A stretch of 31,110 nt of DNA from a virus. Lineage: Duplodnaviria > Caudoviricetes. Under the pieces are notes generated by a model. It ran no database searches. It was not told where the DNA came from and saw only the letters and a program-made list of their open reading frames with translations. This document shows, piece by piece, positions 4,302 through 24,842 of the stretch. The DNA is taken from positions 1-31,110 of the IMG/VR virus record IMGVR_UViG_3300031451_000010; one strand, written 5' to 3'. Position numbers and translations under genes: made by a program. Each line of letters begins with the position of its first letter. Within the stretch, counting starts at the first letter, position 1.

Positions 4302-4310
4302 GTCAGTATA

Positions 4311-5555: not shown

Positions 5556-5606
5556 AAGCCCGTCCATTTATGGACGTGGAGTTGTCACGGTCTAAATCCT
5601 CCGAAC

Positions 5607-5785: not shown

Positions 5786-5814
5786 ATTATACAGCAACCG
5801 GACGGGATTGTCAA
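5786..5814 (-). promoter_or_regulatory. Late promoter P2 (consensus sigma70)
   Basis: TTGACA, 17 nt spacer, TATAAT; the -35 overlaps the NIDO gene stop codon. Confidence 0.75.
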
Positions 5815-6560
5815 GACGCATTCCACGTCAGCGAAACACTGCCATCGCAGTGCCCCTGCCCGGCCAGGCCGGTCGGCGGCGCCACCCTCCCATACACAAC
5901 GCCGTTTCTGACTTGGAAGCGGTAGCGCCCCGGCACGTCGCTGCCCAGGGAATGCGCGGCAAGGGCGGACGGCCCGCCGTCTAGGAATGCGCCGGGAATG
6001 CCGGAGCCGGGAAGCTCGTAAAACGTGCCCGGCTGCCCGCTGCCGGAGCTGTAGCCGGCGTGGGCCGACTGACCGCCCAGCCCCCCTGCCCCGCCCGACG
6101 CGTCCCCGGTTTCCCACCGGATTTGCTCGTAATTGAACTCAATGTCGAAGTCGCCCGTCCGCACATCCGCCCGGCTGATCAGGAGTAGCTGGAAGCGGTT
6201 CAACTTGTCGGCGCGCGAGTTGAAGTAGCCGACGCCCAACCAGTCCAGGCCGAAGCAGGGTAGCCCGTCCACCACGTCCTGCCCGTAGGTCATTAGGCTC
6301 GACCCCGCTGCGCGTGTGTCCACGTCCGCAAAGAAGGCCGCGATGATGGGCTGCGGGACGCCGCCGGTCAGCCCGTAGGGCGTGTAGGTGACTTGCCCGG
6401 ACGTGAAGGTGATATTGCCATTGTTGTTCGGAAAAACGGCGGAATACATCGTCCCGAAGTAGTTGACCGGAAAGCCCAGGGCAGTACTTGGGGCGGAAGC
6501 GTCGTCATTGGCGGCCAGCGAACTAGCCCGGAAGCCTGCTAAATCTCTAATGGCGCTCAA
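5811..6560 (-). CDS. Nidogen-like (NIDO) domain protein ending in the first two strands of an FN3 domain
   Basis: GFPVNYFG..NNNGNITF..IIAAFFADVDTR..NRFQLLLI..FDIEFNYEQIRWETGDASGG; C-terminus APPTGLAG..SVSLTWNAS*. TTG start with GGAGAGGG RBS. Confidence 0.75.
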   Translation of the reverse strand: MSAIRDLAGFRASSLAANDDASAPSTALGFPVNYFGTMYSAVFPNNNGNITFTSGQVTYTPYGLTGGVPQPIIAAFFADVDTRAAGSSLMTYGQDVVDGLPCFGLDWLGVGYFNSRADKLNRFQLLLISRADVRTGDFDIEFNYEQIRWETGDASGGAGGLGGQSAHAGYSSGSGQPGTFYELPGSGIPGAFLDGGPSALAAHSLGSDVPGRYRFQVRNGVVYGRVAPPTGLAGQGHCDGSVSLTWNAS

Positions 6561-7843
6561 ATTCCCTCTCCCCCATGCAGGGCATAACCCTCCATGATTT
6601 GTTCGTACATCTTCGGCAGCATCAGGCGCGGGGACTTGTCCGTGCCCGCCAGGTTACTCATAAAGTGCAGGAGGACGGCGGGCTGCCCCTGATAGCTGAG
6701 GCGCAGGCCCTTCGGCGTCATCTCGGAGTGAAACCACGTTTCCGGGGCGTCATTGTGCGAGAACAGATTGTACCGGCGGCTGAGGAAAACGGGGTCGGCG
6801 ACGGCGTGGATGGCGAGGGTCAGCAGGACTTCCTCGGCGAACCACGCAAAGCCGCCCTCGGCCCACAGCACGGCCAGCGGGTTCCACGCGGCGATCTGCC
6901 GGCCAACCGCCTCCATCGCCTCCCGGTGCCCCGCGACAAACCCTCCGTTGAACAGGTAAGGCCGGTCCACAAGGTCGGCGCGACCCGTCACTAGCTCCAC
7001 GTCCGAATCGGGCGCCCCCTGGCTCCTCACCGCCGCGCCGACCGTGTCGTTTGCCCCCCGGTCTTCCGCAGCCGAAGCCAGGAGCGGGTTTGCCGGGGCC
7101 AATGCCTGCACCCCGGCGACGGAGGAGCGCGACAGGTTTGCCACTGTCGCCCGCAGCCCTTCCAGGGAGCCGACCACGAGCGTGTCCAGGTCACAGAGGA
7201 TGAGGTACCGCGCGTCCGTGAAGCGCCAGGCCCCGTACAAAACGCCCTTAATGGACGCGCCGAACGGTGCCAATCCCCTGCCGGGAATGACGCGCACGTT
7301 CAGCGCCGTTAGCTCCTCCGCCGAAAAGCCCAAGTCCGGGGCGTCAATCGCAAACACCAGGAGCGTAGCATCCGGGACGCCGCCGAAGGCGCGCAGGGAG
7401 CGCAGGAACGTGGAAAACAGGTGCTCGTAGCCGGGCGTCAGGACGACCGCGAGGGCGAAGTCGGCGGGGACGGCTTCGGGAGGGCGTGCAAAATCGGTGA
7501 TAAAATCACTAGTAGGGCGTGCAAAAAGGGCGCGCTGCAAAGGGTCGGTGATGTAGTCGCCCTGTAGCGCGTCCGGGCCAGCCGCCTGCCGGACGCGCCG
7601 GAAGGACGCTTCAATCAAGTGTTTCGGGAAGCGGCGGATTTCGCGGAACACCTGCACCCGGCGCCAGTCGCGAGGGTCCGTCATTTCCCGCATTAGCGCA
7701 TTCAGGCGGTCAACGTCCAGTGCGTCTTCAGGCACTTCTTCAGGCACTTCTTCAGGCACTTCTTCAGGCACTTCTTCAGGCATCTCTTCAGGCATCTCTT
7801 CAGGCATCTCTTCAGGCATCTCTTCAGGCATCTCTTCAGACAT
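6557..7843 (-). CDS. GT-A fold glycosyltransferase (GT8-like) with an N-terminal EEMP/EEVP repeat
   Basis: ILCDLDTLVV (DxD), FNGGFV, RRYN, VLLHF. ATG 7843 overlaps the end of the upstream gene. Confidence 0.7.
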   Translation of the reverse strand: MSEEMPEEMPEEMPEEMPEEMPEEVPEEVPEEVPEEVPEDALDVDRLNALMREMTDPRDWRRVQVFREIRRFPKHLIEASFRRVRQAAGPDALQGDYITDPLQRALFARPTSDFITDFARPPEAVPADFALAVVLTPGYEHLFSTFLRSLRAFGGVPDATLLVFAIDAPDLGFSAEELTALNVRVIPGRGLAPFGASIKGVLYGAWRFTDARYLILCDLDTLVVGSLEGLRATVANLSRSSVAGVQALAPANPLLASAAEDRGANDTVGAAVRSQGAPDSDVELVTGRADLVDRPYLFNGGFVAGHREAMEAVGRQIAAWNPLAVLWAEGGFAWFAEEVLLTLAIHAVADPVFLSRRYNLFSHNDAPETWFHSEMTPKGLRLSYQGQPAVLLHFMSNLAGTDKSPRLMLPKMYEQIMEGYALHGGEGI

Positions 7844-7844
7844 C
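7725..7844. repeat. 12-bp tandem array x10 (TCTTCAGGCA[CT/TC])
   Basis: Four copies of TCTTCAGGCACT, five of TCTTCAGGCATC, one of TCTTCAGACATC; spans stop 7836 and start 7843. Confidence 0.95.
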
Positions 7845-8729
7845 TTGATCCTTCCACTCCGCGATCCGTTCCCGCGCTTCCCGCAGGGCGTCTTCCACCC
7901 AGCCTTTCGCCTTCTCGTGGTACTCCGGCGCGTACTCTTTGGACCCGGCATACGAGCGCGGGTGGTCTACCCAGTCATCGCAATGCCGCTCATAGTTGGT
8001 TTCGTGCCCGATGAGGCGCGGCGCGATGCCTGCCGCCCGCAGGCACAGGTTGAAGCAGGTTTCCGTGTCCGGCCATCCCTGCGTGGACCGGGGAACCCCG
8101 AACTGCGTGTGCGCGCGGTTGAAGTTCCAGGATGCGCCGATCCGATGAACTGTTGGGACATGGACCATCGTCGCCGTGTGGCTGACCATGCCCTCCCACA
8201 AGTCGGTCAGCCAGTCTCGCGGGGACATTTCGTAGCCGACGGCGGGGCACTGGGCGCTGCACATCGTCAAGAGGTATTTCAGATAGTCACGCCTCCGCAG
8301 AAAACAGTCTGTGTGCGTGTTGAACATATACTCCGTCTGGACAAGCGCGTAGGCGAGGTCCTGAGCGACCCCCACCGGCTCGGAGGAGTGCCGGTAGGCG
8401 TGGGCGCGCAGGCAGTGAATTTCCACGTCTTCCGCTTCGCAGTCCATCAGCCGCGCCAGGTGCTCCTCGCTGCTGCCGGTGTCCACGACGAGAATGTAGG
8501 GCCGCACGGTCTGAAGCCGAAGCAGCTCAATAACCGTCGGCACAGTTTCGGGCGTGTTGAGGTGCGCCATTGTCGCTGTGACCTGATACTCCCAGGGCTT
8601 TTTCGCGATGACGCCTTCCCACCGCTTGCCGGGAATGTCCGAGGGGGCGACAAGTCTGCGGCGCGCGGCGCGCGGAGACTCGGACGGCGGGAACAGGCCG
8701 GGTTTGGGCGAAACAGAGGCAATAAGCAA
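7836..8729 (-). CDS. Glycosyltransferase family 2-like protein
   Basis: LLRLQT..YILVVDTGS..TEYMFNTHTDCF (DxD-like). Confidence 0.75.
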   Translation of the reverse strand: MLIASVSPKPGLFPPSESPRAARRRLVAPSDIPGKRWEGVIAKKPWEYQVTATMAHLNTPETVPTVIELLRLQTVRPYILVVDTGSSEEHLARLMDCEAEDVEIHCLRAHAYRHSSEPVGVAQDLAYALVQTEYMFNTHTDCFLRRRDYLKYLLTMCSAQCPAVGYEMSPRDWLTDLWEGMVSHTATMVHVPTVHRIGASWNFNRAHTQFGVPRSTQGWPDTETCFNLCLRAAGIAPRLIGHETNYERHCDDWVDHPRSYAGSKEYAPEYHEKAKGWVEDALREARERIAEWKDQDV

Positions 8730-8791
8730 GGGAAACTCTTCCTGGAGGTTGTCCTGAAAACTCTGAATGCTGCCCTGGATTACTCCTGGGA

Positions 8792-10933
8792 CTAGGCTTG
8801 GCTGAGTAGCGTGATGTCCATTTCAGCGGCTATAATGCCCAGTGTGCTGTCCGCGTAGGCATACATCCGTACCTGGTCGCCTGCCGTCAGGCGAGTGGTG
8901 CGTATGTTGAGTGAGCCGTTGCGGGTGCTGGTCGTAACGAACCATTGAAAATGCGGCCCGTCCGCATTCGCTATGCCTGCTCCTTGCCCGTAACTTATGT
9001 TGGCGGGTAAGCCATCCGCAGGTCGCAACTTGGTAGTGATTTGATAGACACCCGTAACAGGGGCTGTATATATATTGGTAGAGGCATTGTAGTTATTACC
9101 AGTGTCAGAAACGACTGTAGGCAAGGTGATAATGTTAAAATTACCCCCTGGGATACTACCGTTCGTAGTGCTTAGTGTGACTACACAAGAGGCAGAAGCA
9201 GCGCCAAATACACGGCTCCATGCCGTCCCCGTGTCCCGATACCACTCGTTCGTGTCGGTCGCGACGTACAGCCGGTTTGCCGTGGACGCGGCGGGCCGGG
9301 CAGCCAGCGTGCCAAAGGAAACCGTCGTGCCGCCGCCGCTGGCGGAAGGGGTCGCCCAGGTCGCCACGCCTCCCGAAACGGTCAGCACCTGCCCCGCCGT
9401 GCCGAGGGCGAGACGCGCCGGCGCACCGCCCGCGCCGCCCGTAATCAAGTCGCCCGCCGCCGTCATGGGGTTTGTCAGGGCGGAAATGGCCGCAAGCGTG
9501 ACACTTGTAATCTGACCTTTGGCGTTGACGACGATGACCGGCACATGGGTGGCATCGCCGTAGGTCCCCGCCGCCGCGCCCGACGCGGGAAGGTCAGCGA
9601 CAGACATGGCGCGGAACGTGGGGGATGCTGCCGCACCCGAAGCAGGCCCGGCGAAAAACAGGTTCGGGTTTTGGGCCGCATAGGTGACGGTCAGCGTGCC
9701 GCTGCCGGTGACGGGGGAGTTCGTGACATTATAAACGGACGGCATGGACAGCCCGACGCTGGTGACGGTCCCGGAGCCGGAACCGGCGGTGCCGCTGCTG
9801 ATGGCGGTGATCTGCCCGCCGGACACGGTGAGGGTCGCGAGACTGTACGTCCCCGCCGCGACCCCGCTTCCCAGCCCGCTGGGACCTGCGGCCCCGTTTT
9901 GTCCTGCCGCACCCGTCGCTCCCGTTGAGCCTGCCGCACCAGTGGCCCCCGTCGGCCCGGCAGGGCCGGTTGCCCCAGGCGCGCCCGCCGGAATGCCGAA
10001 ATTGAACGTGGCCGCTGAGGGTGTGCCGCTATTGGACACGGTTGGCGAGGAACCAGGGGCAAGCGCGGACGCTGTTCCCGGCGCAACCGTCGCCGCCGCT
10101 CCTGCCGGGCCGGTCTGGCCTGTGGCCCCCGTCGGCCCGGCTGCCCCGGTGGGACCCGTGGCCCCTGCCGGGCCGGTCGCCCCGCGAATGTTTGACTGAA
10201 GCGTCCACGCCCCGCTGACCTTGCTATACACGTCTGCCGTGTCGGTCTTCAGGAACATGTCGCCGTTGTTGCCGGTCGCGGACACTGGAACCGTCGTGCC
10301 CGTCGTCCAAACGCTGCCCGCTGTTCCGGCGGCTCCTGTCGCACCCGAGGGGCCGGTCGGTCCCGTCGCCCCTGTCGCACCGATGGCCCCCTGCGAACCC
10401 GTCGCCCCTGCCGGGCCTGCTGCACCCTTCAGGTTGCCTTGCAGCGCCCATGCCCCGGATGCTTTCTTGTAATAGTCGCTCGTGGTCGTGTTGATGTCAA
10501 AGTCGCCGTCCGCGCCCAACGTGGAAGCGGGAACACCGGCGGCCACATAAATCTGCGAGCCTGCCGCCCCTGTTGCTCCCGTTGGGCCTGCCGCGCCGGT
10601 TGCCCCCGTTGGGCCTGCCGCGCCGGTTGCCCCGGCTGCGCCCTGCGGCACAGTGAAATTGAACACGGCGGCGGAAGTTGTCCCGCTGTTTGTGACGCTG
10701 GCCTGACTTCCCGGCGCGCCCGTCGTGGTCGCACCGACGCTAGCGGTCGCTGCGGCCCCGGTCGGACCCGTGGCCCCCGCCGGCCCCACAGGTCCTGCCC
10801 CGGTAATCAGCTTGTTGCCGGACGTTGTGCCGATGTAGAACTCTGCGGTGTCTTCGCAGATCGCCGGTTCCCCGTCTGCAAGTGTGGGTAAACTCGCCTT
10901 TGGCCCGCGCCGGATTTTGATTTGTGTTGACAT
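8792..10933 (-). CDS. Collagen-like tail fibre with a C-terminal C1q-like head
   Basis: N-terminal IKIRRG..LADGEP attachment motif; interrupted G-X-Y (GAT/GPT/GAA) runs; C-terminal NYNASTNIYTAPVTGVYQI...LTAGDQV. Confidence 0.8.
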   Translation of the reverse strand: MSTQIKIRRGPKASLPTLADGEPAICEDTAEFYIGTTSGNKLITGAGPVGPAGATGPTGAAATASVGATTTGAPGSQASVTNSGTTSAAVFNFTVPQGAAGATGAAGPTGATGAAGPTGATGAAGSQIYVAAGVPASTLGADGDFDINTTTSDYYKKASGAWALQGNLKGAAGPAGATGSQGAIGATGATGPTGPSGATGAAGTAGSVWTTGTTVPVSATGNNGDMFLKTDTADVYSKVSGAWTLQSNIRGATGPAGATGPTGAAGPTGATGQTGPAGAAATVAPGTASALAPGSSPTVSNSGTPSAATFNFGIPAGAPGATGPAGPTGATGAAGSTGATGAAGQNGAAGPSGLGSGVAAGTYSLATLTVSGGQITAISSGTAGSGSGTVTSVGLSMPSVYNVTNSPVTGSGTLTVTYAAQNPNLFFAGPASGAAASPTFRAMSVADLPASGAAAGTYGDATHVPVIVVNAKGQITSVTLAAISALTNPMTAAGDLITGGAGGAPARLALGTAGQVLTVSGGVATWATPSASGGGTTVSFGTLAARPAASTANRLYVATDTNEWYRDTGTAWSRVFGAASASCVVTLSTTNGSIPGGNFNIITLPTVVSDTGNNYNASTNIYTAPVTGVYQITTKLRPADGLPANISYGQGAGIANADGPHFQWFVTTSTRNGSLNIRTTRLTAGDQVRMYAYADSTLGIIAAEMDITLLSQA

Positions 10934-10960
10934 GGTTTGCTTTCCTAAGAATTCTACATC

Positions 10961-11062
10961 GAAACTTCCGGCCTAGAAACTTCCGGCCTAGAAACTTCCG
11001 GCCTAGAAACTTCCGGCCTAGAAACTTCCGGCCTAGAAACTTCCGGCCTAGAAACTTCCGGC
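10961..11062. repeat. 15-bp tandem array x6.8 (minus-strand unit GCCGGAAGTTTCTAG = A-G-S-F-stop)
   Basis: Perfect repeats of the last four codons plus TAG of the tail-tip gene. Confidence 0.95.
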
Positions 11063-13612
11063 TTCAATGGCGGGCTGTCCCGGCGCACCGGCAAAGTCGC
11101 CGCCGTCCACCGGGGGCTGTCCAGGCGCACCTGCAAAGTCGCCGCCGTCCAGCAGTGCCCGCAACGGGAAGCCGCCGATGCCGAAGGCCGCCGCGTCATT
11201 GTCCGCGAGGATCGGCCCGATCCACTGGGCCGCAATGCCGTCCGCGCCCGCCCCGGTCCACCCGCTGCCTTTCAGCATCAGCGACAGGTTGGCGACCACC
11301 GGCCCGTACCCGTACCCGCCCGATGTGGGCACATAGACCGTCCAGACGGCCCGGCCCACGTTCGTGCCGTTCGTGTTGCGCTCGACCACGAGGCCCGCGC
11401 TGTCGCTCAGGAGCGCCGCCGAGTAGAGCAAGTTGCTGAACACGCCGACCGCCGACCAGTCCGCCGCCAGTCGGTAGTTCTGCCCGGACTGCGGGAACGT
11501 GATCGCCTTCGTCGCCAGCGTCACAATCCGGTCCGCGACGCCCGACGCGAGGATTTGGTTGATTTCCTGCTGCTGCGTGTTGATTTCCTGCTGCTGCGTC
11601 CCTACCTGCTGCTCCACGGCAGTCGGTGTGCGCGGGGCAATCAGCACCGACTGGGCGGCGGCATCGGCCAGCGCCTGCAAGTTGGACACGCACTTGACCA
11701 GGACGGTCTGCCCCACCAGGATGTCCGGGACATTGACCCGCGCCAGAGCAGGCGTTGCGAGCGCAAACCTCTCGCCGGCGACGTGCCCCGTCATGGGCGA
11801 AGCGCGCACGCCTCGCCGCAGCCGGGACAGGGTGTAGCTTTGCGGCGCGGTCAGCGTGGCCGTCGCGAAGCCGAGGATTTCCCCGCCGAGGGCGGCGGCG
11901 TTGCCTCCGTACAGCACGTCGTTGTCGCTCGTGGAGCCAAGCTGCCCGTCCTGCCGCAAGGCCACGCCGACCGCGTTTGCCGTATCCCAGGCCGTCCGGT
12001 CCGTCCCGTTGCCCAGAGCCGCCCCCGTCATGCCGATCACCGAGCGGTCCAGTACCGTCCCACCCGAAACCCAGGTCTGCCCGTTGTCGGGAGAATAGAA
12101 GATGGCCGCGCCGCTCCACCCCGCCGCGCCTGTGGCCGCGACGTAAAAGCCGGGACGGAGCTGGTCCTGGTCGCGAAGCTCGGCCCCGCTCCACGCGAGA
12201 AAATCCGTGGGGACCATCACCAGCCCGGTGGCGCCGGTCGGGACCGGCGGCGCGCCCGGCACGGTCTGGACCAGCGCGTCCGCGTCATCGGCGACAGCGG
12301 AAAGCCGAAGCTCGCCGAACAGTCCCATCTCAATGGACACGATGCGTACTCGCCGGAGCACGCGGCCTGCCGGCGAAGCGGAAAAGTCGGTGGGCAGCAG
12401 GACCACATCGGCGGGGGCAAGGGCGGCGTAGCGCGGCGGCAGGGAAAACAAGCAGCTCTCGCGCTCGGTCCAGGCGGTGTCTAGCTCACGGGCGGCGATT
12501 TGGCGCGCCTCGGTCGCCGACAGCGACAGCGACAGCGTCAGAGCGAGGGCGTTCTGGACCGGGGCCGTCTGCCGCACGTCGCTTTGCGTGCCCTGCTCAT
12601 AGTCTTTGGACAGGTCGAAATACGTCAGGTCAATCCGGCCCGGCAGCTCCACATCCTGCGCGCGGCGGGCTTCAATCCGGGGCGCGTCGCCCCCGCTGCT
12701 TCCGCCGCCGGAAGCGGACGCCCCGCCAGAAATGGCCGCTCCCAAGTCGGCGGCGTCAATGGTGAGGACGGGCGCGCCGCCGCGCTTCACGGGACGCAGA
12801 AGACCGTCCACTTCCGTGAGGTCATACGCATAGGTGGACAGCACGGGCGCCAGCGCGTCCTGAGCGGTGACGCGGCTGCCGACGACGTAGCCTGAAACGG
12901 GGTCGGTTGCCCTGGATAGGTCCAGGTCGGCGGGCACAAGTCCCACGTCTAGGGCCAAATCGCCCGCGATGTTGCCGACCGTCACGGGGTCGCTTTCAAT
13001 CGTCGCCCGCCAGTTCGGAAGCCGGTTGGCGAAGTCTTTCAGCGGCAAGTCCTGCGCGACAAAATACACCCAGCCCCGGTAGGCAGGGGCCGCGCCTTCT
13101 GCGGCGAGGATCAGGGGGTCGGGCTGCTGGGCCTCGCTGCCGTCGTAGAACCGGAGGTGGTACGGGTCCACATTGTTGATCGCGTCGTAGATCACCACGT
13201 CGTCCGCCCACACCTTTTTGACCCGCAGGTTCCGCCCCGACCGGCACAAGCCGACCGCGCAGGAGGCGGTATAGGTATAAGTCGTCGTGGACGGCCCGCC
13301 GCCGCCCTTTCCGCCCTGTTTCTGGGTCTGGGAGTGCTCCATGAGGTGATTGCCGTGTTTGTCTTTGGCAACCCACAGGACGTTCCCGGCCACGCGCGTC
13401 CGCCCCCACACACGCGGGATGGCCGTGCCGTAGGACGACCCTGAAGCGTGCAGGTCGGAGAGCTTGCCGCTTTCCTGGTGGATGCCGGGGCGATTGGCGG
13501 CATCAATAATGCCGCCGAGGGTCGTCCCAATACTCCATCCGAGCCGGGCGCCGCCAGGTCCAAACGACGAGCCGATTGCCGCTCCAACGACACCTAACGC
13601 TATTGTGGCGAT
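11048..13612 (-). CDS. Tail-tip/host-specificity protein (RcGTA g15-like); probable ATC start
   Basis: The frame is open 67 codons upstream of the track start at 13411 (ATIALGVVGAAIG..SSYGTAIPRVWGRTRVAGNVLW). Also APAYRG..LKDFANRLPN and YTLSRLRRG; position after NlpC/P60. Confidence 0.8.
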   Translation of the reverse strand: MATIALGVVGAAIGSSFGPGGARLGWSIGTTLGGIIDAANRPGIHQESGKLSDLHASGSSYGTAIPRVWGRTRVAGNVLWVAKDKHGNHLMEHSQTQKQGGKGGGGPSTTTYTYTASCAVGLCRSGRNLRVKKVWADDVVIYDAINNVDPYHLRFYDGSEAQQPDPLILAAEGAAPAYRGWVYFVAQDLPLKDFANRLPNWRATIESDPVTVGNIAGDLALDVGLVPADLDLSRATDPVSGYVVGSRVTAQDALAPVLSTYAYDLTEVDGLLRPVKRGGAPVLTIDAADLGAAISGGASASGGGSSGGDAPRIEARRAQDVELPGRIDLTYFDLSKDYEQGTQSDVRQTAPVQNALALTLSLSLSATEARQIAARELDTAWTERESCLFSLPPRYAALAPADVVLLPTDFSASPAGRVLRRVRIVSIEMGLFGELRLSAVADDADALVQTVPGAPPVPTGATGLVMVPTDFLAWSGAELRDQDQLRPGFYVAATGAAGWSGAAIFYSPDNGQTWVSGGTVLDRSVIGMTGAALGNGTDRTAWDTANAVGVALRQDGQLGSTSDNDVLYGGNAAALGGEILGFATATLTAPQSYTLSRLRRGVRASPMTGHVAGERFALATPALARVNVPDILVGQTVLVKCVSNLQALADAAAQSVLIAPRTPTAVEQQVGTQQQEINTQQQEINQILASGVADRIVTLATKAITFPQSGQNYRLAADWSAVGVFSNLLYSAALLSDSAGLVVERNTNGTNVGRAVWTVYVPTSGGYGYGPVVANLSLMLKGSGWTGAGADGIAAQWIGPILADNDAAAFGIGGFPLRALLDGGDFAGAPGQPPVDGGDFAGAPGQPAIEAGSF

Positions 13613-14391
13613 GGCGATGTCCCCCGGACGTCATTGAAAGCGTCCTGGTCGAAGGCGTCCTGGTCGAAGGCGTCCTGGTCGAAGGCGTCCTGGTCGAAGG
13701 CGTCCTGGTCGAAGGCGTCCTGGTCGAAGGCGTCCTGGTCGAAGGCGTCCTGCCGGAAGCGGTAATGGCGCACGATGCGGGCGAACCAATCCGCCGTCAA
13801 GGGATGCTCCACGACAGAGCCGACCGACCGCCAGGCGTGAATGAGGCTCCAGGCGTTCTCCACGCCTGGACCCCCTTCATTTTCTTCCCTTTCTTCTATC
13901 CCTTCGGGCCGTGCCAGTATCCCGCAGTGGTTCGGCATGGTTTGGTCCTGGAAAACCAGGATGTCGCCTTCCTGCGGCTGTTCCAAAAGGGGCAAACACT
14001 CGCAATACCGGTTCAGGTGGCCGGTCAAGCGGTCAAACTCATGGCCGAGGGTGTAGTTGACATCGTCCTCCACGGGTACGCCCAGCCGCCGGGCGACCAC
14101 GATGAGCAGCCCGGCGCAGTCCAGCCCCACGCCGGGCAGACGGGCGGCGTGATGCCAGGGCGTGCCCAGGCATTCGCGCGCCGCCGCAACGATCTCCGCG
14201 CCTTCAACCTTCCGGCATTCAGTCCTGGCGGGCGCGGGGTCCGTGCCGCTATTCTCCGTGCCGCTATTCTCCGTGCCGCTATTCTCCGTGCCGCTATTCT
14301 CCGTGCCGCTATTCTCCGTGCCGCTATTCTCCGTGCCGCTATTCTCCGTGCCGCTATTCTCCGTGCCGCTATTCTCCGTGCCGCTATTCAA
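13600..14391 (-). CDS. NlpC/P60 tail-tip peptidase with repeat-expanded termini
   Basis: IVAAARECLGTPW..GLDCAGL..GDILVF..HCGI..LIHAW. TTG start; (NSGTE)n N-terminus and (QDAFD)n C-terminus. Confidence 0.85.
   Translation of the reverse strand: MNSGTENSGTENSGTENSGTENSGTENSGTENSGTENSGTENSGTENSGTDPAPARTECRKVEGAEIVAAARECLGTPWHHAARLPGVGLDCAGLLIVVARRLGVPVEDDVNYTLGHEFDRLTGHLNRYCECLPLLEQPQEGDILVFQDQTMPNHCGILARPEGIEEREENEGGPGVENAWSLIHAWRSVGSVVEHPLTADWFARIVRHYRFRQDAFDQDAFDQDAFDQDAFDQDAFDQDAFDQDAFDQDAFNDVRGTSPSPQ
13640..13752. repeat. 15-bp tandem array x7.5 (GCGTCCTGGTCGAAG; QDAFD)
   Basis: Perfect repeats right after HYRFR, where the NlpC domain ends. Confidence 0.95.
14240..14389. repeat. 15-bp tandem array x10 (TCCGTGCCGCTATTC; NSGTE)
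   Basis: Perfect repeats; the first unit in transcription order contains the TAG (14384-14386) of the upstream gene. Confidence 0.95.
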
Positions 14392-14614
14392 TGGTGCCGT
14401 CCCATCGGTCCAGCCAGACCATGAACAAATTGCTTTCGGCGTAGGCGTTGTCGTCGTCCCCTCTGTCTTGGTAGCCCAAAAACCGCTGGTGCGTGGCCTG
14501 AAGATGCTCCCAGGTCATTTCGCGCACTTGCTGCTGGCGGCGATGCGACAGGGCTTCGTCCTCCTCGTCCCGCACGTCGCCGGGGAGATCGCTTGGTTTT
14601 CGGATAGGTTCCAC
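14384..14614 (-). CDS. Small acidic hypothetical protein (GTG start, MEPIRKPSDL)
   Basis: AGAAAGG RBS before GTG 14614; in frame with the repeat-borne ATG 14671. Confidence 0.5.
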   Translation of the reverse strand: MEPIRKPSDLPGDVRDEEDEALSHRRQQQVREMTWEHLQATHQRFLGYQDRGDDDNAYAESNLFMVWLDRWDGTIE

Positions 14615-14628
14615 GTTTGCTGCCTTTC

Positions 14629-14772
14629 TCGGAGAGCATCTATTTCGGAGAGCATCTATTTCGGAGAGCATCTATTTCGGAGAGCATCTATTTCGGAGAG
14701 CATCTATTTCGGAGAGCATCTATTTCGGAGAGCATCTATTTCGGAGAGCATCTATTTCGGAGAGCATCTATT
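14629..14772. repeat. 16-bp tandem array x9 (TCGGAGAGCATCTATT)
   Basis: Perfect repeats; the minus-strand unit carries TAG-ATG, including the real stop at 14768. Confidence 0.95.
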
Positions 14773-15658
14773 TTCGCGCGGTCCAAATGATCTGGTCGTT
14801 GCCCGGAATATGCGGCTCGCCTCGGAAGTTGTTGGTGTTGCCCCGGCTTGCCGGCACGGAGGGGTCCGGGTCCCGAAACTTGGTTTTGCATGTCCCGAAC
14901 AGCCGGTCACACCCGGCCTCCAGCGTCGCCGCGTCGCCCACCGACACCGGGTAGGGGAAGCCTGACCGGAGAACGACCTGTGCGGCCCCGCCGGCATTGG
15001 TGTGGGTCTTGACTTCCCGCGCCTGCCCCGCGTTCGCGCCCGACGTCATCCAAACGATCCCATAATCGTAGTAGCCTCCCGGCTGGCTGTCCCCGCCGAA
15101 GGTCAGCGTTTTGAGGGAGACGACGGCGCTCACAGTCCGGGGGAAACGGTAGGCAGCCACATTCACCTTGCACTGCGCGTCGCCGAGCCGCTTCACCCGG
15201 CAGGCCGCGCTCGTGATGTCCCCGACGTACTGCTTGAGCTGCTGGGTCAGCGACCGAAGTTCAGCGACGTACTGCCCGTCGCGCAGGGTCACTTCCCCCA
15301 GGTGCGCTCGGAGCAGCGCGAGGGTGCCTTGCGAGAGGTCCTGCCAGTTCATCTGGAAAAACAGGGCCTCCGCGCCGTCGTAGGCCCCCGCCGCGATGTC
15401 CGCCTCGGTGATCTTGTCCGAGGTCAGCAGGCCGAACAAGTCCAGTGTGTCCACGCCCGTATCCGCCCCTTGCTTCAGCGAAGTGCTGGCAATGCCGCCC
15501 TGCGGCTCGTACAGCGTTCCGGCGATGGTCAGGGGCGCGTCCAGGCTCGTGAAGCCGAGGACGCGCCCGGCGCGGGTCGTCAAGCGGACGCAGTTTGCAA
15601 GCGAGAGCGCCGCGCCCTGGAGGTGCGCGGCCAGGGCCAGGCTAAGGGTTCGCGGCAT
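14768..15658 (-). CDS. Baseplate hub protein, DUF2163/BR0599 family (RcGTA g13-like)
   Basis: CVRLTTRAGRVLGFTSLD..ITEADIAAGAYDGAE..CRVKRLGDAQC..AGCDRLFGTCKTKF..NFRGEPHIPG. Confidence 0.9.
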   Translation of the reverse strand: MPRTLSLALAAHLQGAALSLANCVRLTTRAGRVLGFTSLDAPLTIAGTLYEPQGGIASTSLKQGADTGVDTLDLFGLLTSDKITEADIAAGAYDGAEALFFQMNWQDLSQGTLALLRAHLGEVTLRDGQYVAELRSLTQQLKQYVGDITSAACRVKRLGDAQCKVNVAAYRFPRTVSAVVSLKTLTFGGDSQPGGYYDYGIVWMTSGANAGQAREVKTHTNAGGAAQVVLRSGFPYPVSVGDAATLEAGCDRLFGTCKTKFRDPDPSVPASRGNTNNFRGEPHIPGNDQIIWTARK

Positions 15659-15703
15659 AGCAGGTTCCTACAGCAAAAGTTAAAGCAAGGACCAAAGGGA
15701 AAA

Positions 15704-16303
15704 TCAAAGCAAAAGCTCCACGACGGGGATGTTGTCCCAGTTGTTTTCGTCCCAGTCGGCGCGGGTGATGTCCATGTCGTCAATGTCAAAGCGCACCGGC
15801 ACGTCAAACTGTCCCGACCAGGTGAACACGGCCCCCGGCTGGGCGGCGGTGAGCGTCACGATCCCGCTCGTCGCGTCCAGGGTCCAGTTGCCGGCGGCGG
15901 GGTAGTCCGCGCCGCCCCGCTGAAGCGAGACCGTGCCGACGACGGGCTTTACAATCTTCCGCACTGCGCCGCCCGCGATGTCCGCGTAGGTCTTTTGGAG
16001 CTGAAGCGTCGCCGCGCCCGTGTTCACAAGAGGCTCGGTGGTCGCGACGTAATCCGTCCAGTCCTTGAAGCGGAATCCGTACAGCATCCCGCGCCGCGCA
16101 TGGAAAAAAGCCAGCACTGCGGCAACATCAACCTTTTTCCGGGTCAAGGAAACGGTCCATCGCCCGTGAGACTGCGACCACAGGGCGAGGCGCTGCTCCC
16201 CGCCACTGTCGGTCGTGATGACGCGCGTGCGGTAGCGTGGTCCCCCATGACAGCCATAGGAGACCTTCGGCGAAAGCTGCACTTCGTGGAAATCAACCGG
16301 CAT
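15704..16303 (-). CDS. Distal tail protein, DUF2460 family (RcGTA g12-like)
   Basis: FHEVQL..GGP..SGGEQR..AFFHARRG..GFRFKDWTD..FDVPVRFDID. Confidence 0.9.
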   Translation of the reverse strand: MPVDFHEVQLSPKVSYGCHGGPRYRTRVITTDSGGEQRLALWSQSHGRWTVSLTRKKVDVAAVLAFFHARRGMLYGFRFKDWTDYVATTEPLVNTGAATLQLQKTYADIAGGAVRKIVKPVVGTVSLQRGGADYPAAGNWTLDATSGIVTLTAAQPGAVFTWSGQFDVPVRFDIDDMDITRADWDENNWDNIPVVELLL

Positions 16304-16311
16304 TGTTTTCC

Positions 16312-19300: not shown

Positions 19301-22242
19301 GGGGCGAAGTGGTTCGCGCCGTACTGGTCAAAGCGCTCCCCGCGCGGGCCGATGGTCTGCACATGGCCCGACCCGTGCCCCATCGTGGCCGAATACAGCA
19401 GCGAGCCGGGGGGCAGTGCCTGCCCCGGCGTGTACGCCCGCGCCAGCCCCGCCTTCTGGAACCGGTGCAGCGCCTCCAGGGCCGACCCCGCGCCCGAAAA
19501 AACGCCGTCGAAGGCGTGGGTGGAGGTCTGGACGGTTTTGCGGGCCAGTTCCTCGCAGTGGTGGACGTACCCGGCGTAGTCGCCGCTCATCTGCTTCTCG
19601 TAAGCCGCCCGCGCGATGGCGAGGCCGGGCGCGGACGTGTCCAGGGTTGCCGAGGCCCCGTGCGCGTCCGCGCCCGAGATGTGCCGGTAGGCCGCCTCGG
19701 TCTTGTTGAGCTGGTGCAGCGTCCGGGTGTAGGCATCTGTGCCCACGCTGAGATGCGAAAGTTCCCCCCGCAAAGCCGCCATTTTATTCACGAGCGGGGC
19801 GAAGTCAGGCAGGGCGTTCAGGCGGTCCTGCGCGTCGTAGCCTTTGTTCATCTGCCCGGTGATCGCCAGCGCCCCGCCCCCGGCCACAAGCGCAGGCAGG
19901 GCGAGGATACTGCCGCCGATAGCCCCAGCCCCCAGCGCCCCGGCCCCCAGCCCCCCGACACCGCTGTACCCAGCCCCTGCCGCGAGGCCCCCTTCGGCCA
20001 GCCCCATCGCGCCCGGCAGCGCCGCCGCGCCCGCCGCGATCCGGGCGGGGAGGCCGGAGAGCAGCCCCTGCGCTTTGGACAGGAAGCCGCCCGCGCCCGC
20101 CGCCAGCCCGCCGCCGGCCAGGGCGTCCCCGACCGACCCGGCCACGAACTTCTTGCCCAGGAGGCCGATGATCCGGCTCAGTACCCCGCCGACCCCCGCC
20201 AACGGGTTCATTAGGCCGAACGAGGCGATCTTCAGCGCGCCTAGCCCCAGCACGGCCTCTTGCACGGGGGCAGGGAGCCGCGTGAAGACGTCCAGGATTT
20301 TCGTCAGTGCGTCGGCAAACTTGAGGAGGATGGGTTCGGCCCGCTCAAACAACGCCGTCACCTTTTCGCCGGCGGGCAGGAAGTCCGCCTGCACCTTGTC
20401 CACAAGCCGCGCCCATCGCTGATGCTGGGTATTCAGGGTGTCATTGTACGCTTTGGCGACAGGGTCGGTCTTCCCGTTCATGGCGTCCGTGTTGTTGGCG
20501 AGGATGTCCCCGTAGTCCCTTGCCGCCGCGCCCGCCAGGACCATCGCCCCCTGCCCGCCGCGCATGGCCGGGATGAGCTTGGTCACAAGGTCGGTGTTGC
20601 CGCCGACGGCCTTCTGCACGTCGGCCAGGACGCCGCTCAATCCCTTCGCCTTCAGGCCCGCCGCCGAAAAGTCGCGCGCTAGGTCTACGCCGGTGATCTG
20701 GGACAGGGCCTGGATGTTTTTCTGGGCGTCCTTGGCCGGATTGATGATATGCACCATCACGTTCTGGACCTGCGTAGCCGCCTCCGCCGCATCAAAGCCG
20801 TGCCGGGTCAGCGCCGACATCGCCGCCGAAACGTCGGTGAGGGGGACGTGCAGGGCCGCCGCCGTCGCGAACGCCTTCCCCGCCGCCGCATCAAACTGCT
20901 CCAGGGTCGTGTTGCCCTGCGCCGCCGACAGGTGCAGGACGTTCATCGCGCGCCCGGCCTCGGCGGCCGGCAGGTTGAACTCGTGGAGCGTTTTGCCCAG
21001 GATGTCTGCTGTGGAGGCCGCGTCCGTGCCCGTGGCGACGGCGCTCTTCATGGCTTCGCGCAGGATGTCCGTGGACTGGGCCGCCGTGAACCCGAAATTG
21101 GAGACGTGCATGAAGCCTTTGGCAAGGTCGTCAAAGGACGCGCCGCTCTCCTTGCCGAGGCTGAGCACCGTCGCCTTCATCGCCTTCATGTCGCCGTCCG
21201 TCATCGTGGTGTTGTTGCGGATGGTGGTGAGGGAGTAGTCGAGGTCTGTGGCAAGTTTTGCCGCCGCCCCGGACAGAAGCGTGATGCCCGCCGCGCCCGT
21301 GGCGGCGAAGTTCCCGGCCCCGGAAATTGCCCCGGTCAGCGCCTTCATCCGTGCCTGGGACGCCGACGCTGCCGCTTCCTGCTGGGCCAGATACTTCGCC
21401 GCCGCCGACGCCCCGCGCGCGCGGGCTGCTTCCTGGGCGCTTTCCTCCTGAGCGACCGAGGCGTCGTAGGCGCGGGCGGCCTCCTTCTGGGCGGCGGCGA
21501 GGGCGCGGGCGTCGGCCTGCTGCTGGGCCGCCGCTTCCTTGTCCAGCCGGGCGATGCGGTTCGTGGCCGCCGTCCACTCCTCGGAGAACGCCTCGTGCGC
21601 GGCCTGCTGCTCGACCAGGGCCGCGCGGTAGTCGGGCAGCGAGACCGCGCCGTGCTGGTACAGCGTTTCCGCGCGCTGCGGGGCGGCCTGGATCGTCTTC
21701 GTCGCCGCCTCGTAGGCCGCCTGGGACGCGACATGGGGGACGCCGGGGGCCGGGCCGAGCTGCTGGTAGACCTGCCGCGCCTCCGCCGCATTGGTCGCCC
21801 CGGTCGCCTTGTGCGTGGCGGCGACCAGGGCGCGGGCCTGGGACTGGGCCAGGGCCTCATTTTCGGCCAAAAGCTTTGCCGCGTCCGCCGTCATGCCGGA
21901 AAAGACGACGCGGGAGGTGGAGGCGAGGGATTTGAGGGCGGTCTCGCCGCGCGCCGCCGCGTCCGTGAGCGACCGGCCCCAGCGGGTCGCGGAGTCGCCC
22001 GACGCGCGCGCCGCCCCGGTGAAGCCCCCGGCGAGGCTTGCCTGCACGCGGCCCGCCGCGCGGGAGGCGTCGCGCGACATGGCGTTCCAGGCGTCCGAGG
22101 AGGCGGCCTGGGACGACTTCGCCTGCTCCCCGGTCGTCCGGGCGAACCGCACCAGCCGCGTTTCGGCCTGCGCCATGCCCCGGTCCAAGCCCGAAACATC
22201 CGCGCCGATCTCGACCTGAAGCTGTGCTACCTCAATTGGCAT
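16312..22242 (-). CDS. Tail tape measure protein (TP901-type core)
   Basis: 1976 aa, Ala-rich and helical; N-terminal VAQLQVEIGAD; follows the tail assembly chaperone; C-terminal FRRSQAVL. Confidence 0.92.
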   Translation of the reverse strand: MPIEVAQLQVEIGADVSGLDRGMAQAETRLVRFARTTGEQAKSSQAASSDAWNAMSRDASRAAGRVQASLAGGFTGAARASGDSATRWGRSLTDAAARGETALKSLASTSRVVFSGMTADAAKLLAENEALAQSQARALVAATHKATGATNAAEARQVYQQLGPAPGVPHVASQAAYEAATKTIQAAPQRAETLYQHGAVSLPDYRAALVEQQAAHEAFSEEWTAATNRIARLDKEAAAQQQADARALAAAQKEAARAYDASVAQEESAQEAARARGASAAAKYLAQQEAAASASQARMKALTGAISGAGNFAATGAAGITLLSGAAAKLATDLDYSLTTIRNNTTMTDGDMKAMKATVLSLGKESGASFDDLAKGFMHVSNFGFTAAQSTDILREAMKSAVATGTDAASTADILGKTLHEFNLPAAEAGRAMNVLHLSAAQGNTTLEQFDAAAGKAFATAAALHVPLTDVSAAMSALTRHGFDAAEAATQVQNVMVHIINPAKDAQKNIQALSQITGVDLARDFSAAGLKAKGLSGVLADVQKAVGGNTDLVTKLIPAMRGGQGAMVLAGAAARDYGDILANNTDAMNGKTDPVAKAYNDTLNTQHQRWARLVDKVQADFLPAGEKVTALFERAEPILLKFADALTKILDVFTRLPAPVQEAVLGLGALKIASFGLMNPLAGVGGVLSRIIGLLGKKFVAGSVGDALAGGGLAAGAGGFLSKAQGLLSGLPARIAAGAAALPGAMGLAEGGLAAGAGYSGVGGLGAGALGAGAIGGSILALPALVAGGGALAITGQMNKGYDAQDRLNALPDFAPLVNKMAALRGELSHLSVGTDAYTRTLHQLNKTEAAYRHISGADAHGASATLDTSAPGLAIARAAYEKQMSGDYAGYVHHCEELARKTVQTSTHAFDGVFSGAGSALEALHRFQKAGLARAYTPGQALPPGSLLYSATMGHGSGHVQTIGPRGERFDQYGANHFAPQNFQYFVPPPGVSVPGSAAAASASSTASAAMAGHGKITAKMLADMTAADSAREKAQKRLAAAIASTNENLGKQIAIQKAQAVMGADGDKRATHVAQINYEMKQGDLKGADPAQAKHLRAAAQQLDNLEIAQKSKKDAQDLAGAYKVSAAGLLRDIAKLNAVPIMVGKKVLDDSRYAALAFDLYHTEGKKAGADLVDLSEGQKRHLLGLARTADALKAVKSVTDGYRERLVALTRDQNLHAGATEIQAFKYDAVRTTADLSVLSLKGVTSAVRQQIAAKIALSQQQSRTILGMMQEQALAKTLVLLQEKLALLSLPRPQRAVVEAAGGAKQYDDLDAQGKASLGSAVHFTNVAAGLDQLHFDTLNRLRDSMTPLATETDKATAAIANLLANDPIAAKTPNLKNWIDGITGAARALDEESARRGASAQSIPLLNDIGDLKAKLAGTYDPAKQAGVEWVRQNQEWIAQLDQIWGSDKTGQFVQNMQSQMQDRFHLGVQVQNLEKYNAALADLQKQALQMRAANPFEAWKASLLELDPATQKLKMPYTDAQAKNLYDIQQKMALAHQAAQGITDVLSGAFTAAYEHGFKGFFTNVLDGFKQMLLRMATEYLQSQLLQALNRKLSGVFGGSSGDGSVGGLLGGLLGGKNKASDSHGGAAGTAFGASAGSALGSVLGGFIPGLGGVIGSVIGGTVSNVLGGAISSSSPLHGHAIAAAASPLPAPVILPAPVMAFALTPEAPRLAANPTAVGRAIASVPAPVSRAIVSAQAPSVGAQAAAARAVAGAAAPMLGAAIAGAAPVLGAAVKANMQSAVPDLTGALGKVAAMSFVTVARMDKAAQGFSAGATALADARAVVDAVPSLTPRAMSAFTPPVAPAMIPALAPPATPALVDFKPTMPDFARSTAPPNQAAGQAYLTGEAARPADFSSSQLDRTTAESSRDLAGAPSSAAPSSAAAPAQGDTHYHFQYNINTPNPEAFRRSQAVLLAEAHANAKRAALRNG

Positions 22243-22248
22243 GGTGAA

Positions 22249-22338
22249 AGCCTAAGAGATTGAGAGCCTAAGAGATTGAGAGCCTAAGAGATTGAGAGCC
22301 TAAGAGATTGAGAGCCTAAGAGATTGAGAGCCTAAGAG
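22249..22338. repeat. 16-bp tandem array x5.6 (AGCCTAAGAGATTGAG)
   Basis: Perfect intergenic repeats ending 6 nt before the tape measure ATG. Confidence 0.95.
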
Positions 22339-22375
22339 CAGCGCTCAAAAGAGGCAAGAGCCGGCAGCGACCCGG

Positions 22376-22926
22376 CTACCGGCTTCGGGCGCGCGCGTCG
22401 TGTTCGGCGCGGCGCTCCAATTCGGCCTCCACGGACCGCTTGACGCCCATCACGGTGATGGCGTGATCGCGCCAGTAGGACGGCATTTGCTCCATTTCCC
22501 ACGGCGGGCAGTGACAATAGTGCGCGGCTTCCAGGAGCAGAAACCAGTCCGGGATTTCGCCCGACCGCCCGCCGGTTAGAAGGTATCGTCGGAGCCGTCG
22601 GACGCTGTCGCGTTTGGGCGCTGGTCCTCCGCCAGAGCTTCCACGATCTTGGCCTGCGCTTCAATGGACAAGAGTTCGTCCAGAGTTTGCGCGCTGAGGG
22701 GGACGGGGCTGCCGTCGTCGTCCACCACGTCCCACGAGCGCAGCACTTTTCCCAGCATCAGGGCGAGCGAATGGCCGGGGCGCGAGCGCCGCACTTCCTC
22801 CATCTCTGCTTCCAATTTGGGCGTGTAGTCGGCTCTGGAGTAGACCACGTTCAGGGTCTCACCCTCCCCGAACGGGATGGCAAGCGATTTGTCGCCGCCG
22901 TTGAGCTTCTTCAGTTTGATCGGCAT
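22376..22926 (-). CDS. Tail assembly chaperone, long form (gpGT-like) made by -1 frameshift
   Basis: Slippery C CCA AAC at 22618-22612. The -1 frame is open: RDSVRRLRRYLLTGGRSGEIPDWFLLLEAAHYCHCPPWEM...RARSR*, stop TAG at 22376-22378. Confidence 0.75.
22576..22926 (-). CDS. Tail assembly chaperone, short form (gpG-like)
   Basis: LRSWDVVDDDGSPVPLS motif; lies between tail tube and tape measure. Confidence 0.8.
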   Translation of the reverse strand: MPIKLKKLNGGDKSLAIPFGEGETLNVVYSRADYTPKLEAEMEEVRRSRPGHSLALMLGKVLRSWDVVDDDGSPVPLSAQTLDELLSIEAQAKIVEALAEDQRPNATASDGSDDTF

Positions 22927-22973
22927 GATGTTTTTCTTTCAGTCAGTTTTCAGGCGTTCAGTTCAGCCCCAGA

Positions 22974-23309
22974 TTAATTCAGCCCCAATCGGGCGAGGAC
23001 GTATTCGCTGACAGCATTGGGGGACACAGTACTCAGGGTGCGGAAGGCGTCCGTGATATAGCCGCGCAGGAGCAGTTCCCCCAGCGCCTGCCCTTCCGGG
23101 CCAATCTGGGCCAGCACAAAGTCCGCCACCTGGTTTGCAGTCTCCGTCCGCGTGGCTCCAAGCCTGAGCACCCCCCATGCGTTGCGTATTGCGCCATCCA
23201 CCTTGCTGCGGGCAATCGCCCGCACAAGAGGCTGGGACTGCGCGGCCTGCTTGTTGAGGGACCGGCCCAGCGGCCCCTGATGGGACAAAAGATTACTCAG
23301 CCAGGACAT
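22974..23309 (-). CDS. Hypothetical protein
   Basis: 111 aa ORF with GAGGGG RBS that fills the operon gap. Confidence 0.6.
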   Translation of the reverse strand: MSWLSNLLSHQGPLGRSLNKQAAQSQPLVRAIARSKVDGAIRNAWGVLRLGATRTETANQVADFVLAQIGPEGQALGELLLRGYITDAFRTLSTVSPNAVSEYVLARLGLN

Positions 23310-23331
23310 CGCGGATACCCCTCACCACCGC

Positions 23332-23369
23332 CTAAAGGGTGGAAATCTTGCTAAAGGGTGGAAATCTTG
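23332..23369. repeat. 19-bp duplication ending exactly at the tail tube stop
   Basis: CTAAAGGGTGGAAATCTTG x2. Confidence 0.9.
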
Positions 23370-24814
23370 TTGATCAGACTGAACTGCCCCAGGCCGAAGT
23401 TCTCATCGTCGGCGATGTCAAAGGTGAACGTGTTGCCGTACACGTCGTTTTTGTTGCCGGGGTCCGGGGTCATCACGCGGACGGGGAGTTGCGCCTTGAA
23501 CTGGTGGTAGATGTTGGGCGTCCCGGCCTCGATCATCGGGCCGGTCGCCTTCAGCCCCAGATGCACCACCTGGTTGTCGTACAGCCGGGCCATGTAGAGG
23601 TCGGCTTCCGTGCCCTCCTCCGTCGTGATCTTCGCGCCGAAGTCGGGCGCAAGCTCCACAGTGTCGTCGTAAGAGGAGGTCGCGTCGGTGACGTGGAACA
23701 CGGGCTTCCACAGGGACAGAAGTCGGATTTCGCCGTCCAGGGTTTTGTTCAGCTGGTTAAAGGTCACGCCGCCATCCGTGGACAGCCACACGCTGAGGGC
23801 GACCGGGCTGACGGCGAGCGGGGGGAGGACGGGGAGCGGGGTCGTCATCGTGATGTTCCGCTGGAGCCTCGTGCCGAATATCTGCCCGTCCATGCTGGCG
23901 TCTTCGGGCGTCCAGGTCAGGTGGCAGCCGCCGACAAAGCCCCAGCCGAACTTCTCCGCCCCGCGCGCGCTGCCCTGCTCGAAGGTCAGGGTGGACTGCA
24001 CGCCCGGCTGGACCGGCGAGGGCTTCCACAGCCGCTGCCGCCCGGCGACGCCCACGGTCGTGGGGGCCACGTCCCCGAACAGCGAGGAAAGGACTAGGTA
24101 GAGCAGGTTGAAGTCCATCGCGCCGGTGAAGGACGCTTCCGTGTGCTCGTGGCCGACCTGCCCGTCCGTGTAGGCTTTGGAACCGCTATGGCGCACACCC
24201 TTTTTGGGGATGATCTGCTTGGGCTGCATCTCCATGTTTTTCAGGCGGATGGTGGCGGGCACGAGCAGGCCCGGCGTGGTTTCCCGCCCGACCTGGATGC
24301 CCTGGTATACGAAAGCGCGTGCCATGCTGTAAATCCCCCCTTGCGAAAGTGTCGCCGCAGCGACGTTGGACGGCGAACTTTCCGCTACGTCCGGGCCTGA
24401 AGACGCGGTGCCCAGCGCGGTCACGATGTATTGGTAGCGGACGTCGTTCTCGGTCGCGTAGTCATCGAAGCTCAGTGCGGACGTTTCCGCCATCCGCACG
24501 AAGGCCCCGATGTCCGGGTTCAGCCGCCACACCCGGTAGCTCGCCGCGCAGGACACCGGCGTCCAGGACAGGCGGATGTGGTTCACGCCCGTGCCGCCCG
24601 TCGCGGTCAGCGCCGTCGGGTCGATCATCGCGACGGCGGCGGTCGCCGAGGGCGCGCTGTCCTGCCCGTTTTCGGTCGCGGTGACGTAGTAGTAGACGAT
24701 CCGGCCAGACGGCTCGCCGGTCCCGGCATAGGCCGGTGTCGTCAGCCCGCTCACCACCAGCGAGAACGGTCCGCCGGGCTGCGAGGCGCGGTACAGGCTG
24801 TATGTTCGCGCCAC
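23351..24814 (-). CDS. Major tail tube protein with N-terminal half-FN3 plus FN3; internal in-frame start at 24325
   Basis: GGAGGAGG RBS with GTG 24814; FN3 W/Y pattern; then GGGGGG RBS with ATG 24325 (MARAFVYQGIQVGRETTPG, tube-like). Position between tail terminator and chaperone. Confidence 0.75.
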   Translation of the reverse strand: MARTYSLYRASQPGGPFSLVVSGLTTPAYAGTGEPSGRIVYYYVTATENGQDSAPSATAAVAMIDPTALTATGGTGVNHIRLSWTPVSCAASYRVWRLNPDIGAFVRMAETSALSFDDYATENDVRYQYIVTALGTASSGPDVAESSPSNVAAATLSQGGIYSMARAFVYQGIQVGRETTPGLLVPATIRLKNMEMQPKQIIPKKGVRHSGSKAYTDGQVGHEHTEASFTGAMDFNLLYLVLSSLFGDVAPTTVGVAGRQRLWKPSPVQPGVQSTLTFEQGSARGAEKFGWGFVGGCHLTWTPEDASMDGQIFGTRLQRNITMTTPLPVLPPLAVSPVALSVWLSTDGGVTFNQLNKTLDGEIRLLSLWKPVFHVTDATSSYDDTVELAPDFGAKITTEEGTEADLYMARLYDNQVVHLGLKATGPMIEAGTPNIYHQFKAQLPVRVMTPDPGNKNDVYGNTFTFDIADDENFGLGQFSLINKISTL

Positions 24815-24842
24815 CGCGCCTCCTCCGGGCCTTCAGTCCAGG

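Follow-up and report, generated by a model that had tools for sequence, protein, structure and literature searches.

A fibronectin type III domain divided between two distant phage genes as a probable clip for exchangeable passengers on the tail tube

The virus record IMGVR_UViG_3300031451_000010, analyzed here over its entire length of 31,110 bp (the window), contains two genes 19 kb apart that appear to share a single fibronectin type III (FN3) domain: a gene for a NIDO domain protein, which ends with strands A and B of this fold, and the gene for the major tail tube protein, the long form of which opens with strands C to G. From the sequences and from structure modelling we consider it quite probable that the two pieces form a strand-complementation clip by which an exchangeable passenger is hung on the tail tube. 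Briefly, the late operon would give passenger and tube as two separate translation products. In the long tube subunit the first FN3 domain would lack strands A and B, leaving its core open, and the passenger, NIDO in the window and an unrelated domain of about 200 residues in a second phage, G001, would end in exactly the two missing strands. Insertion of this hairpin would complete the FN3 domain, so that the passenger hangs outside the tail tube, and in the window and G001 the cysteine of the A-B loop would come to lie next to one in the B-C loop of the following FN3 domain, with a disulfide probably forming once the particle meets oxidizing conditions. Since an inner start probably yields plain tube subunits, the arm would be present on a part of the subunits only. 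The gene for the passenger lies directly ahead of the lysis genes, in a slot that varies, and could be exchanged without touching the tube. In this reading the halves would bind in vivo, and the passenger would be displayed on the virion, with a putative role in surface or host attachment.

Are the two pieces really the halves of one domain? The Pfam fn3 family is silent on the N-terminal part of the tube protein, even over its intact second FN3 domain, and a profile was therefore built from 400 natural domains of multi-FN3 proteins, seeded with this intact domain. The 24 C-terminal residues of the NIDO protein occupy columns 19-41 of the profile (14.7 bits) and tube residues 2-62 columns 44-101 (36.5 bits), without overlap and with a gap of two columns, or one if the initiator residue is counted. 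Together the halves reach 55.3 bits, compared to 57.9 bits for the intact second domain, and once joined they contain each of the seven strands once, with Trp in strand B and Tyr in strands C and F. Among 4475 stop-to-stop segments, taken in six frames from the window and the loci L001-L010, no match confined to the A-B columns surpassed that of the NIDO tail (8.6 bits; next 5.2), which ended exactly at the stop codon. The original prediction, made from the letters of the window, of one FN3 domain with no missing or redundant strand, followed in the tube by an intact one, is thus borne out, as are the gene ends on which it was built: the NIDO reading frame runs from 6560 to 5811 on the minus strand with its stop at 5813-5811, and the tube frame starts with GTG at 24814 behind a strong ribosome-binding site (24826-24819) and a nearby in-frame stop (24835-24833).

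The acceptor has the tube fold and the position, between tail terminator and tape measure, of a siphophage major tail tube gene, with PF11367 and PF10145 in its neighborhood. Its model matches best the solved tube of phage P74-26 (8ed0, E value 1.7e-11), then 8xan (1.6e-10), and also FN3 arrays, while Pfam and PHROGs hold no family for the reading frame. Among the 11 in-frame inner methionines of the window tube, Met164 has the strongest ribosome-site context (-11.0; next -5.0), the matching Met159 of G001 is the strongest of 16 (-8.2), and tube relatives without the extension begin at the place of this inner Met. As judged from these contexts, it is probable that the inner start also yields short, tube-only subunits, giving a long and a short form as in phage SPP1.

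Evidence from the donor side comes from G001 (IMGVR_UViG_3300033070_000686), compared with a control phage, G002, whose tube lacks FN3 domains; both records are 79% complete. The G001 tube (L014:9503-10951), 35% identical to the window tube, also starts with strand C. Between the tail-tip genes and the lysis-like genes of G001 lies a reading frame of 218 residues (L089:787-1443) that has no Pfam family and no NIDO domain but ends LAGxGxCxGSVxxxW like the window NIDO protein, with nine identical columns. Aligned with the window tail the G001 tail scores 57, compared to 29 for the next best of 564 G001 segment ends, and this score was reached by none of 300 shuffled tails and none of 350 natural A-B segments of FN3 domains (maximum 42 in both sets), which indicates that the two tails are homologous and not merely both FN3-like. 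The tail of the G001 passenger moreover looks like an add-on, as the Atlas structural neighbors of this protein align from residue 1-4 to 197-212; viral stand-alone proteins resembling the passenger are 192-214 residues long. In G002 the best tail score among 494 ends was 26, and the tip gene runs directly into the lysis-like genes. A gene with an A-B tail is hence present in both strand-C phages with readable genomes and absent from the one control. A scan with the tail motif returned six loci, namely G001 and five apparent chance matches, all of which continue for more than a few residues past the Trp.

It could be argued that the half domain needs no partner, since it might fold or pack on its own like anastellin, or pack onto the next FN3 domain or a neighboring subunit, in which case the A-B tails would be leftovers of an old gene break. 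Indeed, the tube half modelled without a partner forms a sheet with predicted local distance difference test (pLDDT) values of 73-83, anastellin self-associates without strands A and B (PMC2671840), and two tube relatives keep the half domain behind an immunoglobulin (Ig) domain. However, a useless tail is unlikely to have been kept in two phages with tubes this far apart, on unrelated passengers, with the same cysteine and in the same gene slot, and the control phage lacks a gene with such a tail. We therefore regard this alternative as unlikely.

How widespread is the open half domain among tail tubes? Among 39 tube proteins, chosen from the matches of two protein searches and two loci, nine start with strand C: their first FN3 match sets in no later than the fifth residue, at column 44-47. 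In P0004 and P0005 this half domain is preceded by a complete Ig domain, without A-B strands in cis, and P0160 resembles the strand-C tubes by eye although the search pattern excluded it; the remaining relatives carry a whole FN3 domain or a domain of another kind, or have no extension at all. In a quickly computed tree, from which P0160 was left out and in which P0002 and P0258 were represented by rows truncated too soon, the strand-C tubes do not form one recent branch but are scattered in a clade of 25 rows, mixed with tubes that have no extension, which argues against a one-off break or permutation in the window genome. To judge from these sequences the split either dates far back or was passed from one lineage to another, a single origin being neither shown nor excluded. 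Further searches added little to this sample. A motif scan of viral contigs gave 55 loci, one of them (L014) with an FN3-bearing tube. Scans of viral contigs with the window tube and with P0140 yielded no further strand-C genome, the A4 scan only G001 again, the A1 scan two loci, both of the FN3-less tube type, and another motif scan four chance matches. A metagenome scan found the window's own contig and otherwise the FN3-less type. One GTDB scan returned nothing and the other 22 loci, five of them with short tube relatives; in the phylum of G004, matches were obtained in seven of 401 genomes, always outside the FN3 part, and annotated phages gave one weak FN3 match. A long frame in G353, considered as a possible tube extension, was rejected as not being one. 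The tube family also carries varied N-terminal passengers in cis (F5/8-like, N_BRCA1_IG, PA14-like and FN3 arrays) before the Met that opens the tube domain; such passengers or internal insertions were seen in P0002, P0004, P0005, P0141, P0142, P0154, P0164, P0166, P0176, P0198 and P0215.

In structure prediction, tube residues 1-158 and the last 34 residues of the NIDO protein form a complex with an interface score (ipSAE) of 0.82, compared to 0.02 for the best of three controls; in a benchmark 116 of 157 solved complexes, but also 2 of 215 mismatched pairs, attained the mark set for this score. The runs share at least 96% of their contacts, and the partner has pLDDT values of 79-81. Since the two chains are halves of a common fold, this result may come from FN3 likeness, and the score indicates fit rather than binding. 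A detail that does not follow from FN3 likeness is the modelled contact, with an expected error of 0.5 Å, between Cys89 in the B-C loop of the second FN3 domain of the tube and Cys238 in the tail. G001 has cysteines at both places (tube Cys89, tail Cys209), and among 350 natural FN3 domains five and six, respectively, have a cysteine in these loops. A disulfide between Cys238 and Cys89 is on the basis of the model somewhat favored. A disulfide-locked tag-catcher system, with a portable tag of 24 residues, passengers in a cassette slot and an inner start that tunes catcher density, is proposed tentatively, short of calling it probable. The probable inner tube start and the cysteine pair had no place in the original prediction.

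Even if the halves bind, the passenger might be an assembly cap or chaperone, or a partner outside the virion, instead of a displayed arm, and we know of no ligand for this NIDO domain or for the G001 passenger. An open FN3 core is prone to aggregation, as in anastellin (PMC2671840; PMC13233970), which would suit a cap. A cap would need only the hairpin, however, and not a folded domain of 200 residues, the predicted disulfide lock suggests a lasting joint, and in the precedent of phage Tuc2009 the joined proteins are a permanent part of the virion (PMC4742702). A role as cap, chaperone or non-virion partner thus seems quite unlikely.

Several observations weigh against the clip and have to be set beside this evidence. 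On the generic FN3 profile the G001 tail by itself is worth only 2.1 bits and raises the score of its half by 1.7 bits, a weakness that explains why the profile scan missed it. The co-occurrence of tail and half domain consists of two phages and one control, all donors of the other seven strand-C tubes being unseen, and a search with the G001 passenger and its tail gave only itself among 50 candidates. P0004 and P0005 fit an unseen donor as well as a half domain that needs none. In the model of the NIDO protein alone, residues 230-249 are without structure (pLDDT below 50), albeit this may reflect that the tail is present in 2 of 30 alignment rows. Finally, the second cysteine is present in five of the nine strand-C tubes but absent in four (P0003, P0006, P0007, P0138), so that the disulfide lock is not universal. 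Taken with the second phage that has both halves, the control phage without a tail gene, the modelled complex and the cysteine pair, fragment complementation onto the tube, as originally envisaged, is nevertheless well supported. The same proposal called the NIDO protein an adhesin, a label that is unproven, as its model matched no solved structure at an E value of 0.001 or less.

A different explanation, also contained in the original prediction, is that the segment 5814-24814 is a circularly permuted module, or one that circularizes, and that rejoining of the DNA would produce a fused NIDO-FN3-FN3-tube protein. The ends of the segment would indeed join in frame with almost no residue missing, and the NIDO stop codon sits within a perfect promoter box. 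But the tube gene is at its normal place between the tail terminator and the chaperone and tape measure genes, a position that it also has in G001 and G002, several relatives likewise start with strand C, and G001 has the same layout with different junction DNA and, by eye, no promoter-like box at its tail stop. In agreement with the earlier remark that no att-like repeat is visible, the two junction regions of 180 nt have no word of more than 8 nt in common, in either direct or inverted orientation. Contigs from two possible source samples (X1, X2) and from another study (X3, about 96% identity) cross both junctions unbroken, and none of the 15 joints shown in a list that holds 13 more lies at either point; such contigs drop rare variants. 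Nor does any tube relative with an inspected N-terminus carry a NIDO domain. The variants P0133 and P0135 keep both halves, P0135 with seven changes in NIDO, none of them in the tail, and with the last residue missing. The permuted module is thus not upheld, and DNA rejoining seems very improbable. The same nearly seamless junction could also be made by back-splicing of RNA or by protein trans-splicing into one chain. However, each gene is equipped with a start, a ribosome site and a stop, the two phages do not share the residues at the junction, no intein-like motif is seen by eye, and the donor gene lies downstream of the acceptor, which renders joining at the RNA or peptide level extremely improbable.

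The closest relative of the proposed clip in principle is found in phage Tuc2009, in which a C-terminal hairpin of 25 residues of BppU completes the beta-sandwich of BppA, as seen in a solved joint (PMC4742702). In both cases a C-terminal hairpin of about 25 residues completes the sandwich of a partner and thereby attaches an accessory protein, in the window on the evidence of profile and model only. In Tuc2009 it is the scaffold that donates the hairpin and the accessory, carbohydrate-binding protein that holds the open domain, and this at the baseplate, whereas in the window the accessory protein would be the donor and the major tail tube the acceptor, a distance of 19 kb separates the genes and, with G001 included, two unrelated passengers share a tail. 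A disulfide lock and long and short tube forms are predicted in addition; with the tail tube as acceptor and an accessory as donor the pair is not of the BppU/BppA type, and no homology to these proteins is claimed. In SPP1 two tube forms, gp17.1 and gp17.1*, are made from one gene in a ratio of 3:1 (PMC8718954). As in SPP1 and Ig-decorated tails, FN3 or Ig domains would lie outside a siphophage tube of which one gene would provide two forms, but in SPP1 a whole C-terminal FN3 domain is added by frameshift, while the window tube has an N-terminal extension with an incomplete first FN3 domain and its short form would come from an inner start. Anastellin, a fragment of fibronectin III-1 without strands A and B (PMC2671840; PMC13233970), has the same cut, with strands C to G and an exposed core, and binds FN3 modules by strand exchange; it is a recombinant or proteolytic fragment of an animal protein with promiscuous partners, and not half of a separately encoded pair. 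The halves of engineered split monobodies refold without ligation (PMC11666773). There too two FN3 fragments yield one functional domain, but the cut is engineered and lies in the C-D loop instead of the B-C loop. Two further comparisons suggest themselves. In chaperone-usher pili a donor strand completes the Ig-like fold of a partner, and the SpyTag/SpyCatcher pair adds a covalent lock. Pili donate one strand with the help of a chaperone, while the window system would donate two and add a predicted disulfide; SpyTag is engineered and forms an isopeptide bond, while the window system is natural and its predicted bond a disulfide.

The identity of the window passenger is clear (Pfam PF06119, E value 2.5e-23, 83.5 bits compared to a cut-off of 25). 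At least 15 extra N-terminal residues are found in 114 of 119 NIDO homologues, an extension that the window protein lacks. A PEP-like motif (loose pattern) occurs within the last 45 residues of 81 of the 119. Many NIDO relatives carry PF07589, and a PEP-CTERM-like anchor usually holds the position of the A-B hairpin. The simplest history would be that a secreted bacterial surface domain shed its leader and exchanged its cell anchor for a virion anchor. In one of the 119 relatives (P0034) the NIDO domain is followed by a complete FN3-like domain. A stand-alone NIDO protein without FN3 tail is encoded among virion-like genes on another viral contig (L001:253-1005), and a narrow literature search found no report of a NIDO domain on a virion.

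Table 1. Coordinates of the clip components and of other features in the window
Feature	Position	Strand	Remarks
Major tail tube gene, long form, 487 residues	23351..24814	-	half FN3, whole FN3 and tube domain
Shine-Dalgarno of long form, GGAGGAGG	24819..24826	-	duplex -12.1 kcal/mol
FN3 strands C-G ("catcher"), tube residues 1-62, without A-B	24629..24814	-	profile columns 44-101
Intact second FN3, tube residues 65-155	24350..24622	-	Cys89 in B-C loop at 24550-24548
Tube domain, residues 164-487	23351..24325	-	best fold-search matches are siphophage tail tubes
Probable inner ribosome site and ATG (Met164) of tube-only short form	24323..24342, ATG 24325	-	
Passenger gene, 249 residues: NIDO domain (about residues 1-224) and FN3 A-B tail	5811..6560	-	stop 5813-5811
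FN3 strands A-B ("tag"), NIDO protein residues 226-249	5814..5885	-	Cys238 at 5849-5847
Two genes from collagen-like fibre to NIDO gene	6557..8729	-	no Pfam family
Sigma70-type promoter, 12/12	5786..5814	-	NIDO stop codon inside -35 box; faces lysis-region genes
Tandem arrays	7725-7845, 10961-11062, 13636-13752, 14240-14389, 14629-14773		
Tandem arrays, continued	22245-22338, 24843-24932, 28255-28352, 30523-30583, 30857-30946		

The late region of the window lies on the minus strand and comprises head genes, connectors, terminator, tube and tape measure, then tip genes (DUF2460/BR0599/NlpC), a collagen-like fibre, two genes and the NIDO gene, followed by a TnpB-only insertion and the lysis-region genes (Table 1). 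The gene adjoining NIDO resembles a glycosyltransferase, which is to be taken as a lead only. The sequencing runs that hold the window are labelled as rock metagenome, and no RNA run is among those listed. A G002-type phage has a DUF2460-like tip gene with an N-terminal extension of about 210 residues (L002:15091-16386). The insertion, of IS200/IS605 type, spans about 4190-5588 on the plus strand (TnpB 4248-5555), with the promoter at 5814-5786 on one side and the lysis-region genes on the other, and holds in its left end a second sigma70-type promoter with 12/12 matches (4272-4301, plus strand). The X3 contig that matches this region aligns only from 5584, suggesting that the X3 strain lacks the element. 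One X3 contig has a loose end at 5884, where the A-B tail meets NIDO, which may reflect a fusion of the tail with foreign sequence or a short match by chance. The lysis region encodes at its far end a protein of 631 residues (123-2018, minus strand), which combines a GH5 (cellulase family) domain with a C-terminal coiled coil. The ten tandem arrays are near-perfect, with units of 12-20 bp in 4-10 copies and a different unit in each array, and lie nearly all at gene starts or ends. The Logan contigs of X1, X2 and X3 break at several of them, and the arrays are thus also present in a second strain.

Literature searches, made in listings that leave out most subscription journals, showed no report of a split FN3 domain on a tail tube. 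New in the system proposed here would be a tail tube acting as acceptor, a remote, cassette-like donor gene that provides passengers of two unrelated kinds, a predicted disulfide and a tube in two forms. With 24 and about 155 residues the pair is small, and it lends itself to tests in vitro. Should the cysteine lock prove real, it would be a reducible equivalent, made by nature, of the engineered tag-catcher pairs and could be used for display on protein tubes. For the phage it would mean that the decoration of the tail can be changed, with the conserved tube gene untouched, by moving a tag of 24 residues onto a new domain, and FN3 ends that look truncated in the genes of phages may be functional joints and not signs of decay.

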